From positions 1 to 64,000 of the forward strand of contig NW_020845628.1 in assembly GCF_003704095.1 (NCBI RefSeq): a stretch of DNA of 64,000 nt, in the 5' to 3' direction. The stretch comes from Pocillopora damicornis (taxonomy: Eukaryota). The notes under the pieces are model-generated. The model was not told the DNA's origin. It ran no database searches and saw nothing but the letters and a program-made list of their open reading frames with translations. A program made the translations under genes and the position numbers. The first letter of the stretch is position 1, and each line of letters starts with the position of its first letter. Positions 41,412 to 48,882 of this stretch are shown one piece after another.

Positions 41412-43977
41412 TCAAGTCGTCAAATTTTGCGTTGGATCTACCCTCTGAATCGTGCATTCAGGCTTGTTGGGACCAAGCCTTTTTGACGAAGCTTCAATTA
41501 ATTCTTCGTCATGCGATTCCTCTAGCACGCTCAAAAATCTACCAGTTTCTGTTATTTCTGACGCGAAGCTATCCGACAGTTCTTGACCGTTGATGCATGA
41601 AGTATCCACCATCGACCTGCACTCTGCTACTTCGTTTACAACAAGAAATAGCAGTTTAACGTTGCGCTCATGAACTTTTGTGAAGAACTTAATTCTTCTC
41701 CGCAAAGCCTTTTTTTCGGTGCCTGATTTTTCGATTAACACTACAGATGGCTCCGCGTCTATGGTTTCGCTTTTATGTCCTCCTTCTTCTTCTTCTCCTT
41801 TTTGTTCCGGTTCCATGGCTCCTATATACTTCTTTTCATTTTCAATGATCGCGTCAAGCATTTCGTGAAAGGAGTTAAACTTTCCAAGAAGTTCGTAGAA
41901 GTTTTGTCGACTCTCTGTCGTGCATATACCCCGTATGTACCTTAGTTTCCACAACACGACTTCGTTATGCAGCTGTGTTTGAATCTGTTCCATTTTTGAT
42001 AAAAGCTCCCTCGCAGTCCGCGCCAAGCTTGCACACTTCACATCAGCACAGCATCTGGAACCGTTCCTTAATACGTCCTGATTAAGAGGAAAATATGTTT
42101 CAGAAACAGCTAACCCTTTATTCCGAAAGGTCTAATGACTCTTAAGATTCTCGAACGTTAGTCCGGCGCACGCGCTCTGACTCAAACGGGTCGCAGCGTC
42201 TCTCATTCCCACCATGTCTGACAAACTTAAACGGACAACGAGCTAGGCAGTGTTCCAAGCCAAGCTTTATTCAAAATCTTCAATGTATGAAAATGTGTAA
42301 CTCACTAAGACTTCAGACCATGAAAACTATGGTACGAAAACTTTATACGACTTGACACATGACCGTCACACAATAGTCGCCAAACTAGCGACTATCGCTA
42401 CAAATAAAGTGGACAAGTTTTCTTTGTCTAGTCAAAACACCGTCGCAGTTTGGAGCACTTCTAGGAACCGTAGCAGAAATGTTCTTCTCACTTTTTATTT
42501 TAGTACCGATGTTGTATCCATTTTTTTCTTTTACACCCGAGTTCATGGCAAAACACACTTCGAGAGTAGATTGCCCTATTGTTCAAGTACACAACAAAAT
42601 GACTCCTGGTTACTCTCGAAGTCATAATTCTTCGACGCCTGCACTTCGCAATGAATTTTCTTTTTGGATTAAGATGTGTTTATTATGCTATTCCTAAATG
42701 AATTCTTAAAATATTTTGAATTTGGTAAGCCCTATAGTGATCAGTGGCAGAAATATTGAGCTAAATCGGGTCTTATAGTAATCAAAAGAATCTACGATTT
42801 TGTGCCGGTTCAGTTCTGCCTCAATTATCCTTTATGGAATCAAATATTATATAAAGGAAATTCTTCTCTCAAAGATTTTAACGTACTCTTTTGCTAGTCA
42901 AACTGTGAAAATTAATGAAAACTTCCTTCATCTCTCATTATTTATTCAGAAAACCACAGGTCAGTTGATTTATTACAAAACGAAAAACAAAAACAAAAAA
43001 ACTAGCAACAGGCACCTAACAGCTTCATCAGTGAGAAGTCAAATTCTTCCGAGTGATGGATCATTTTCTTCAAACGAATGCGCAGGTGTGCGTTTCAATT
43101 TTCCTTTGAACTGTTATGTGCTCTGTGGAAATGAGTCTGAGAAACATACGTTATATGTTACGCGAAAACCATGGCGCTTGTTCACACATACAATATCGCT
43201 ATGCATCCTCGACTTATTCTGACTCTATTAAAATTCAAATCCTTAAACTGAAACCAAACGTGAGGATTTAATGGTATTCCCCAGTGGGTCAATTAAGGTA
43301 AGAGATTTGATTGGTGGTGCGGTTAATGGTAATACGACAATTATCTTCGTTTAGGCGTCATAAAATTCTGAGTGGAATTAAAGATTTACGCAATGATAGA
43401 AAATCAAAGATGGAATTGATACCTATTTTTAGATGCATCACGCCGAAGCACGCACGAATTTTGGAAGACATACTAAGCTTCTCGTGTTTATTCGAGAATT
43501 TGCTCCAATTTGTTTGCTTTCTTTCACTTGCATAATTATTATTTAGGAGAAGGAAAATGATTGGAAAGTTTTTACCACAAAGCTGTGACAAAAAAATTGG
43601 AATCAAATTTTCTTTTTGATATATTTCTAAACAATTACGTTTGGTACTAAATACAGTTTTGCCTGATCAATCTCAAAACGTATGCTTAGTCAAGGTTAAA
43701 CAATTTTCTTCTAAAAGTCTGATTGCAGTCTCGAAAATACTTCGACCGCGGGATAACTGATTTATGTCACTGTGAAAAAAATCACAAATTTTCGACTGAA
43801 TATTCCATACAGACGGAAGGTTTAGTCACTTATCATACTGAAGTTGCACCCCAATAAACAATTTACCGTCAGTTTTGAGCAGCTATCCTGTTGTTCTTTC
43901 TGGGTGAGTGATGGTTTTCCTCTTGAGAATGGAAATCTGGAGAGAATTCGCCAGCAGAATGACATAATCGTTCCCAT
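41412..43977 (-). CDS. Uncharacterised alpha-helical protein with N-myristoylation motif, paralogue 1 (~258 aa, 2 coding exons)
   Basis: Exon 43977-43867 (MGTIMSFCWRILSRFPFSRGKPSLTQKEQQDSCSKLT|gtaaat) plus exon 42077-41412 (tcttaatcag|DVLRNGSRCCADVK..., continuous with the 209-aa ORF). Aligns with the plus-strand gene at 45774. Confidence 0.75.
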
Positions 43978-45773
43978 GATCAAACTGGCAATAATCACCT
44001 GGTGTTCAGAGTCGAGATGCACCGATCAGCTGCCACGAGATGACTTGCTTTATTTATATGGACTGTCTCACGAGAGCTCCTCCAGCGATTCGGCGCAGAT
44101 GACGATTAGATAAAAGTACCAACCACTCAAGATGGCTCTGCGCATTTACTTAAAAACGAGAACCATTTATCCACTCCACACAAAGCTATCTCCAGACCTA
44201 AATGATAACATGTAATAAATTGTCACAGTTTCGACCTTTATGGCCCTTTATTTTTCTTTATTTGTTTTTACACCATTTTTAATGAAAAGAGCTTCTTCAA
44301 AAAATATTTCTTTGCTATTTAGTGTCAATCCTGTGGAGTGCTCCCGAAATATTATTTTATTTTTTAGAGTTATGTAAGGCGCTAAATCAATTATGGCCGG
44401 CTAATATAAGCAATATCTTTCATTCAAGGGACTAATACCAAAATAGATCGGAGGTCCTCGGGTGTTTTCGTGTTACTTGGTGTGTTTCGTGTTATTCCGG
44501 CGTTCAATCTGTAGCAGTTCGACTCACTTTATCAACTAATTGGTTGAATTGGTCACACGTCCCGAGCTGAATGCATAATATTTTCATGTGTCTGCCTATG
44601 AATGGTGACTGTACTACTTATTTTGGTGATACTTCATCTGCATCTTTGTAAAATGTTTCGGCTACTTGCCAAATTTCTGAAATCACTTTCGGTGTTAAGT
44701 GGATCTCGTCTTTACTAAACAGCCGCACCTGGCAACACAAATGAAAGCTGTTTTGTTACGCAAATCTTATCATATGGTCCATCTGAACCTGTGAAAAATC
44801 AACAGGTTCCCTGAATTCCCACCCATATTCTCTGTATTACGCAAAAATCTTACAAAAACAAAATGAGTCTTTTGTGAGCATTTTACTTGTAGCGTGCTAT
44901 ACACTGGGCACATTGATATTTCGACAAGCTGCAAACTATCAGCGCCCTTTTAAAACGCAGACGGTTTATCCTCATTTTATTCGACACTTCTGTCTTATCA
45001 ACGTAAACAAAGCGTCGAGTCTTGTTTTTCACGCCGTTCACGAACCACTACAAAAGCTGACAGATTTCATAAACCACACCTCAGTTTATGATACCGCTGA
45101 CACAGACTCGCCCTGCTCGGACCTTGGCAGAAGGACATGTGCATGTGGTCTCATATGTGCAATACTGCAGGGCGTATTAACCTTGCAGTCAATACAGCAC
45201 ACCTTTGACACGATGACTTCACATCATCAGATTACACTAACGCTGTATAGAATTCGCAAAACCTGCAGCAAAACAGTTAGCCCGCTGGAATCAACCAGCA
45301 AGTAAGGAATCACATTTAGAACGTTGGGAGGAAGAAAGTGTTATCGTACTACACCGACTCACATAAAAAAAGTCACCACCTGCAAACTCGCTCAACCAAG
45401 TCGATTTGCAGCTCCGATTGAAACCAAGACGCAAAGGGTATCAGACAGACCACAACTTTCTCAGGTAAGGATTCTACCTGTTTATTTCCATTATCTCTAT
45501 TTCAATGTATAAACACTAAGCACAAATTCTATGGGATAATTCCATCACAAGTGAGAGCTTTACTGCCCAAACATTTTTGCGAACAGGTAGATTATACAGA
45601 AATGTCTGGCCCCGAGCCGAAAAAATACAATGCGCTTCCCAAACTGTGATACTACGGTGAGCTTAGCTTTTGGAATTATTACACCTAAACTTTTCAACAT
45701 TTTACATTGTTAATTTCAGGGAAGGTTGGAGATAGATTGCTTGTCTATAACTAAACCTATTAAGCCGGTTACC

Positions 45774-48700: not shown

Positions 48701-48882
48701 NNNNNNNNNNNNNNNNNNNNNNNNNNNNNNNNNNNNNNNNNNNNNNNNNNNNNNNNNNNNNNNNNNNNNNNNACATAAACTGACTTGATGTTTAATATTT
48801 TGAAAGGTCTAAAGGGTTTGAGACTTGGATAAAATGTCCAGCCAGCCCAGCTTACGATTACGGTAGTATTGGAAGCTTATGA
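45774..48882 (+). CDS. Uncharacterised alpha-helical protein with N-myristoylation motif, paralogue 2 (C-terminus uncertain)
   Basis: Exons 45774-45851 (MGTTMSSVGLANKPPALPPVKQNNTA|gtaag), 47269-47361 (VIATAQSPPDYKFEHFTKLCQHYQEQKKILQ), 48129-48451 (VQIRTEVHNWK...DSSG-AG|gtaag), and a tentative 48807-48882 beyond an N-gap. Confidence 0.7.

Follow-up and report, generated by a model that had tools for sequence, protein, structure and literature searches.

Small myristoylated adaptors and scaffolds, of which we take BORCS5/myrlysin, LAMTOR1, CHMP6 and the Src-family SH4 anchors to be comparable systems, start with an MGxxxS anchor and continue into a helical module for interactions; some add a second anchor, which can be a Cys, a basic patch or an amphipathic helix. 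On its own, myristate gives weak membrane binding, and a second signal is needed. This requirement is treated for Fyn in PMC2132482. We looked at two divergent genes, P1 and P2, located in the first 64,000 nt (hereafter the window) of contig NW_020845628.1 of Pocillopora damicornis (assembly GCF_003704095.1). Their products share the organization of these adaptors, but they have no above-cut-off Pfam match to the families of the latter and their known range is Cnidaria only. By predicted fold, they come closest to the Habc domain of syntaxins (syntaxin-1A 1EZ3 and 3C98, squid 1S94, Sso1/2), which the P2 model resembles in helix lengths and domain boundaries, and to the STAT coiled-coil domain (STAT1/2/3/5) and the MukF middle domain. 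Contrary to syntaxins, P1 and P2 lack a SNARE motif and a C-terminal transmembrane helix and carry an N-terminal myristoylation signal instead; the likeness comes with 6-12% identity, and no sequence-level match was found. In outline, what stands is an unnamed, probably pan-cnidarian family of proteins with a predicted N-terminal myristate and three-helix bundle, whose head-to-head pair is conserved in stony corals. P1 and P2 resemble lipid-anchored helical adaptors with a Habc/STAT-type fold and belong to no named family.

Paralogy and the N-terminal signal

P1 and P2 are real paralogous genes under purifying selection. Their Smith-Waterman score of 92 was reached by none of 5000 full shuffles (maximum 62) and by none of 5000 shuffles of 10-residue blocks (maximum 71), reversed sequences scored 33, and BLASTP gave an E of 1e-6. 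Profiles built from separately collected relatives of each protein matched at 96.1% (E 3e-9, 124 columns); deeper profiles reached 98.8% (E 6e-17), but these share a joint search and are hence less independent. The pairwise similarity claimed in a preliminary description of this DNA is thus significant, and the three blocks quoted there align as written. The absence of gaps holds for the first 79 columns, after which a variable insertion makes P1 longer by about 25 residues between helices 2 and 3. Between two coral loci from metagenomes (L006 and L009), dN/dS was 0.083 for P1 and 0.013 for P2; exon 2 of P1 gave 0.08-0.14 against the window, with dS near saturation. Identity to the Stylophora, Oculina and Montipora orthologues was 89, 66 and 44% for P1 versus 96, 90 and 91% for P2. 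Across the stony corals compared, P2 was 90-96% identical, and 66-70% to sea anemones.

The two ATGs, at 43977 on the minus strand (MGTIMS) and at 45774 on the plus strand (MGTTMS), are present as described. Both have A at -3 and G at +4, a strong Kozak context. No in-frame ATG lies upstream before a stop in either frame, the spliced leader of P2 included, and the RefSeq models begin at the same Met. The N-myristoyltransferase pattern of PROSITE consists of Gly2, a small uncharged residue 3, a small residue 6 (Ser being best) and no Pro at 7. Both proteins of the window fit it. Among 37 named NCBI records of the family, 30 start with Met-Gly, 27 follow the full pattern, and Ser6 is found in 25 of the 30 Met-Gly records; as a chance check, the pattern is matched by 12 of the 1677 open ATG hexapeptides in the window. 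Over residues 3-25, just 1-6 of 23 positions are common to coral P2, Xenia, Hydractinia, Hydra and P1. Since this segment is so poorly shared, Gly2 is singled out by selection. What weighs against this is that the pattern failures include two Hydra records and one Montipora isoform, Hydra carrying Ile6. Two of the seven records without a Met-Gly start hold an internal MG...S, and the others are presumed to be partial, chimeric or alternative models. The MGxxxS signal proposed earlier is therefore matched by both proteins and kept by selection, and myristoylation of their Gly2 is predicted on the basis of sequence.

We then compared the candidates for a second anchor. In P1 orthologues, the Gly is followed by an amphipathic Arg-containing helix, whose hydrophobic moment is 0.48-0.60 across five P1 sequences (P2: 0.12), and a structure model of the Stylophora orthologue has a helix at residues 2-13. 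Palmitoylation of Cys8 in P1, as suggested previously, is weakened: Cys8 is present in the window, in two of five named orthologues (Stylophora and Oculina) and at loci L005, L006, L008 and L009, but it is absent in Desmophyllum and in both Montipora. The more constant second anchor of P1 would be the amphipathic basic helix rather than Cys8. P2 has no Cys near its N-terminus. No transmembrane segment was found in the six members tested (best 19-residue Kyte-Doolittle mean at most 0.96). Met5 of P2 (45786-45788) is invariant in 15 of 15 aligned hexacoral sequences; leaky scanning to it would yield an anchor-free form, although the first ATG has a strong Kozak context. The N-terminal PPALPP of P2 is kept in hexacorals only.

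Predicted fold and range of the family

Structure models gave a linker and a bundle of three long antiparallel helices, the bundle taking about 125 residues. The helical bundle of the preliminary description was thus recovered as a predicted three-helix bundle in both P1-side and P2 models, and the fold type is predicted to be that of syntaxin Habc and the STAT coiled coil. In Foldseek, syntaxin entries were the top four rows for P2 (probability 0.97-1.00; on isolated Habc, TM 0.78-0.81 by target length and an rmsd of 2.3-2.4 over 123-124 columns) and the top two VIA rows for P1. Residues 33-160 of the P2 model lie on residues 26-149 of the syntaxin chain. Against syntaxin descent, STAT and MukF tie with syntaxin for P2, identity in the structural alignments is the 6-12% given above, and no E is below 0.001.

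The other parts of these known proteins were not found. A SNARE motif takes 60-70 residues after Habc; P2 has only 30 residues past helix 3, with two Pro, and the P1 tail is acidic and mostly coil. Neither the C-terminal transmembrane helix nor the Cys-rich lipid anchor of syntaxins was seen in the six members mentioned above. The DNA-binding, linker and SH2 domains of STAT are missing from proteins that end at 189 and 258 aa, with stops supported by RefSeq. Chains of I-BAR, F-BAR and Vipp1/ESCRT-III had Foldseek probabilities of 0.08-0.15. Prediction of a P1-P2 complex scored 0.00 in two runs that used neither alignments nor folded controls, with an uncertain partner fold, and carries no weight either way.

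Five residues of P2 (W67, E105, R127, F131, C152) are near-invariant and, from the helix register, would serve in packing the core and in a buried ion pair rather than as an active site. The tail W[IL]xCP..Y[DE][YF]GS[ILV] was found in 7 of 11 sequences, namely in every coral, anemone and octocoral-type one and in none of the four more distant ones. The P2 model puts it, with low confidence, at the position of syntaxin H3 or the fourth STAT helix, a hint of a docking motif or of a switch between open and closed states. At the very end of this tail (48860-48879, plus strand), Y-G-S-[ILV] is conserved, Actinostola having Phe for that Tyr; we assume that it fits a YxxPhi sorting motif. Anthozoan P2 also has four Cys (residues 80, 152, 156 and 175), placed by helix register at one end of the bundle, and these could form a metal site, a disulfide or an acylation cluster. 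Most P1-side rows lack Cys80 and have a Cys four positions earlier (the equivalent of residue 76), beside the shared C152.

Searches against known families agreed with the earlier claim of an unrecognised family. No Pfam model was above cut-off for the two main exons, a 25-member alignment or a 33-member alignment. By sequence, the best PDB matches had E values of 0.08 (Bem3) and 0.45, and no syntaxin was among the 2 and 7 matches at E up to 10; likewise, no syntaxin or SNARE model was present in the best 25 of 31 and the best 25 of 50 Pfam families. Below threshold, IMD reached a best E of 0.009 (4 of 25 members), Mvb12 0.006 (9 of 25) and BORCS7 0.035 (6 of 25). The best Pfam match, RelA_SpoT (E 3e-4, 21.3 bits versus a cut-off of 27), was rejected, being found solely in near-identical P2 rows. 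TcdB_N (best E 0.05) was considered helix noise, with no signal peptide or hydrophobic hairpin pointing to a toxin. Dynein-tail-like ESM Atlas clusters for P1 exon 2 (0.92-0.93) were also discarded (low recognition, 1196; 154-158 shared features), the ESM Atlas gave no usable match for P2, and no viral structure came under E 0.1. In the literature, twelve gene or protein identifiers of the family returned no paper in a search that left out most subscription journals, and Habc-like, STAT-like and other keywords returned no description of the family among the matches listed, as far as these go. Eleven of the 14 supplementary files of the Hydractinia atlas PMC11876637 hold no family identifier.

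To define the range of the family, a 25-sequence hexacoral profile was compared with 1.84 billion representatives and gave 36 matches at E up to 0.001. Those with a named source or cluster, a minority of the 36 (20 clusters were looked up), were all cnidarian: stony corals, Nematostella, Xenia, Hydractinia and Hydra. A word-indexed search with a 33-sequence profile returned 57 proteins, yet missed the Hydra and Hydractinia members; because it overlooks known members, restriction to Cnidaria is likely but not proven. The family is probably pan-cnidarian, judging from these matches. With P2-side relatives across Cnidaria, the term "orphan" used earlier has to be dropped. In a 44-row tree, 18 P1-like rows, so labelled by us, lay on one side of a long branch (100/99), and octocoral and hydrozoan members lay on the P2 side. 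The tree supports the old duplication proposed previously; as it has no outgroup and several long branches, the duplication is dated to no later than the separation of the major stony-coral groups, maybe earlier. P2 is listed twice in Oculina (ACROYT_G002098/G002099) and Orbicella (LOC110040335/LOC110040337), and its core occurs inside two chimeric-looking old Nematostella models (Nematostella entries P0027, P0028, P0063); these records may be recent duplications or assembly artefacts.

Gene structure and head-to-head arrangement

P1 has two coding exons on the minus strand (258 aa) and P2 four on the plus strand (189 aa), and all their introns are GT-AG. The features of the locus are as follows.

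41412..42077, minus strand: P1 coding exon 2, with the predicted three-helix bundle, an acidic insertion between helices 2 and 3, an acidic low-confidence tail and the stop codon
42078..43866, minus strand: P1 intron, phase 0, GT-AG, joined in RNA run X1; the acceptor is at the same codon in L006 and L009
43867..43977, minus strand: P1 coding exon 1, 37 codons, with the MGxxxS start, the amphipathic basic helix (about residues 2-16) and Cys8
44082..44150, no strand: small block of conserved non-coding DNA that precedes the P1 ATG by about 105-175 nt and may be the promoter or 5' untranslated region (UTR) of P1
45071..45279, no strand: blocks of conserved non-coding DNA ahead of the leader exon of P2, candidates for its promoter, 70-86% identical in L005, L006, L008, L009 and L015
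45306..45464, plus strand: P2 5' UTR exon (5' limit approximate), its frame continuous with the coding sequence, joined to 45720 in X1
45720..45851, plus strand: P2 exon that holds ATG 45774, the MGxxxS start and a proline-rich segment (PPALPP); the intron after it (45852-47268) is phase 0 and joined in 4 of 4 RNA runs
47269..47361, plus strand: P2 coding exon 2, with the PPDYKF cap and the beginning of helix 1, its joints present in all four runs
48129..48451, plus strand: P2 coding exon 3, with the end of helix 1, helices 2 and 3 and the near-invariant W67, E105, R127, F131 and C152
48807..48882, plus strand: P2 last coding exon, with the anthozoan-conserved tail and the stop, loose RNA ends

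RNA evidence came from contigs of four runs from four studies; contigs drop rare forms and give no strand. RNA depth was not used for gene ranking, because the libraries also cover introns and intergenic DNA. The P2 model is letter for letter protein P0039 and RefSeq XP_027046079.1 (P. damicornis LOC113673829) or XP_058951898.1 (P. verrucosa), and Stylophora XP_022794327.1 is the orthologue 89% identical to P1. The first two coding introns of P2 were joined in all four runs, the P1 intron in one. The first coding introns are both phase 0, as stated in the preliminary description, but the true first intron of P2 lies in its 5' UTR (45465-45719, joined in X1, one of four runs). Since a stop bounds it upstream and it has no Met in frame, the leader exon cannot lengthen the N-terminus. 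The last exon of P2 sits past an assembly gap (N at 48587-48772) and is backed by RefSeq identity and by loose ends in at least three runs (X6, X11 and X14) among the matches listed.

The head-to-head layout proved to be conserved in other corals. Four of 16 metagenome loci reach P1, and the genes are divergent in all four (L005, L006, L008 and L009, from two distinct corals), with the ATGs 2835 and 2614 nt apart in these two corals versus 1797 in the window. Consecutive accessions or locus tags were found in Stylophora, Oculina (with two P2 copies), Montipora foliosa, Porites harrisoni and Desmophyllum, indicating neighbours, as tags do not give orientation. In three further assemblies, P1-like and P2-like proteins come from contigs of identical size, presumably the same contig. 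At a more distant coral locus (L016), neither P2 exon 1 nor P1 was visible, which is uninformative. By tblastn, no third paralogue was found within the window. The block near P1 matched L006 by blastn (74% over 73 nt, E 3e-4) and L009 over 21 nt; the block pair near P2 is about 0.9 kb away from it. Because the two sets are separate, two promoters are likelier than one compact bidirectional one. Together with the Montipora identities (44% for P1 versus 91% for P2) and the splice joints (one versus four runs of four), this did not bear out the earlier idea of co-regulated partners.

Possible role, alternatives and neighbouring elements

We consider it slightly better than an even bet that P1 and P2 form an undescribed cnidarian family of small non-enzymatic adaptors on the cytosolic face of membranes. 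Met would be removed and N-myristoyltransferase would then acylate Gly2. P2, because it has no nearby Cys and few basic residues, would be held weakly and reversibly, with a protein partner as second signal, and P1 would be held more firmly by its amphipathic basic helix plus, in some corals, palmitoylation of Cys8. The groove of the bundle may bind a peptide, helical or extended. The conserved C-terminal tail of anthozoan P2 may close the protein by folding into this groove; a partner in trafficking or signalling might then displace the tail or be recruited by it. P2 would keep the ancestral job, and P1 would be the copy that evolves faster, adapted to another membrane or partner. P1 would stay head-to-head through inverted duplication and shared regulatory space, not from a need to dimerise.

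The syntaxin rows at the top of the Foldseek results, with their matching helix lengths and boundaries, could also point to a free-standing Habc regulator of exocytosis, a descendant or mimic of a Qa-SNARE minus the SNARE motif and transmembrane anchor, plus a myristate. Such a protein would gate vesicle fusion in cnidarian secretory cells through binding in trans, its target being either open syntaxin (at the SNARE motif) or a factor of the SM, Munc13 or Sec3 type. With 6-12% structural identity, the tie with STAT and MukF, and no syntaxin among the Pfam families and PDB sequence matches covered, we find this unlikely, for the protein type as for its mode of binding. Its fuller version, in which Habc was freed in the cnidarian ancestor, the tail mimics the closed state and the protein serves, in trans, as a cnidarian-specific brake on, or chaperone of, SNARE-mediated exocytosis (e.g. 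in cnidocytes, gland cells or the symbiosome), P1 being a tighter-anchored specialist, is quite unlikely. The divergent orientation at all four loci, the consecutive tags in five corals and the likely common contig in three assemblies would fit an obligate P1-P2 heterodimer made from one bidirectional promoter. Contrarily, the two proteins evolve at strongly asymmetric rates, the ATGs are 1.8 to 2.8 kb apart with separate conserved blocks, and the named matches from Nematostella, Xenia, Hydractinia and Hydra are all P2-side, an absence of P1 that is weak evidence, as is the difference in splice joints, since contigs drop rare forms. We regard such a heterodimer as distinctly improbable.

A coat subunit that shapes membranes or polymerises (BAR/IMD-, ESCRT- or BORC-like), forming oligomers on the membrane to which it is tethered, would account for the sub-threshold IMD, Mvb12 and BORCS7 matches and for Bem3 as best PDB sequence match, and a dynamin gene adjoins the pair in the window and in L009. 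However, none of these Pfam and PDB matches reaches the cut-off and all stem from near-identical P2 rows, the Foldseek probabilities for the corresponding chains are low, the bundle has about 125 residues, and gene neighbourhood is weak evidence in animals; this makes a coat subunit very improbable. The proteins might also be soluble and non-myristoylated, Gly2 being kept for the +4 G favoured by Kozak context, for N-acetylation or for N-degron control, and the Arg-rich amphipathic N-terminus of P1 being an organelle-targeting peptide; Hydra does break the rule at position 6. But a +4 G also permits Ala, Val, Asp and Glu, whereas both paralogues retain Gly, as do hexacorals, an octocoral and hydrozoans, with Ser6 in most Met-Gly records, and we hold this to be highly doubtful.

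P2 is strongly conserved and probably phylum-restricted, yet without a Pfam model, and conserved phylum-restricted membrane adaptors are good candidates for cnidarian-specific cell biology machinery. The orthologues in Nematostella (LOC5501706), Hydractinia (LOC130613352) and Hydra (LOC101238082), which are genetic models, make the function of the family directly testable. If descent from syntaxin were true, the family would be a new way to build a SNARE regulator; if not, it would be one more lineage-specific myristoylated helical adaptor, of annotation value and no surprise.

Several minor elements surround the pair. From the start of the dynamin gene (about 34900-39640, minus strand; Dynamin_N and Dynamin_M matches), a plus-strand spliced RNA diverges at 39835-40608, with GT-AG joints 39987->40608 in 4 of 4 runs and 40048->40608 in 2 of 4. 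Its longest Met-ORF is 72 aa, and it has no DNA match in L009. A single X11 contig spans 40606-45465, across P1 and the intergenic region. Two possible readings of this RNA are a long non-coding transcript antisense to P1 and a distal leader of P2; the long X11 cover could also be DNA carry-over, contigs have no strand, and a stretch without RNA cover at 40230-40539 proves nothing alone. High-copy nested inverted repeats (arms of 58 and 29 nt) lie at 47407-47863 in a P2 intron, where the depth of the RNA libraries is in the hundreds, and another patch of high depth lies at about 40850-41160, downstream of P1; both are probably MITE-like repeats. Finally, a Sushi-Sushi-VWA-trypsin gene, which we take to be of the complement factor B/C2 type, is located tail-to-tail with P2 (about 51500-57330, minus strand).

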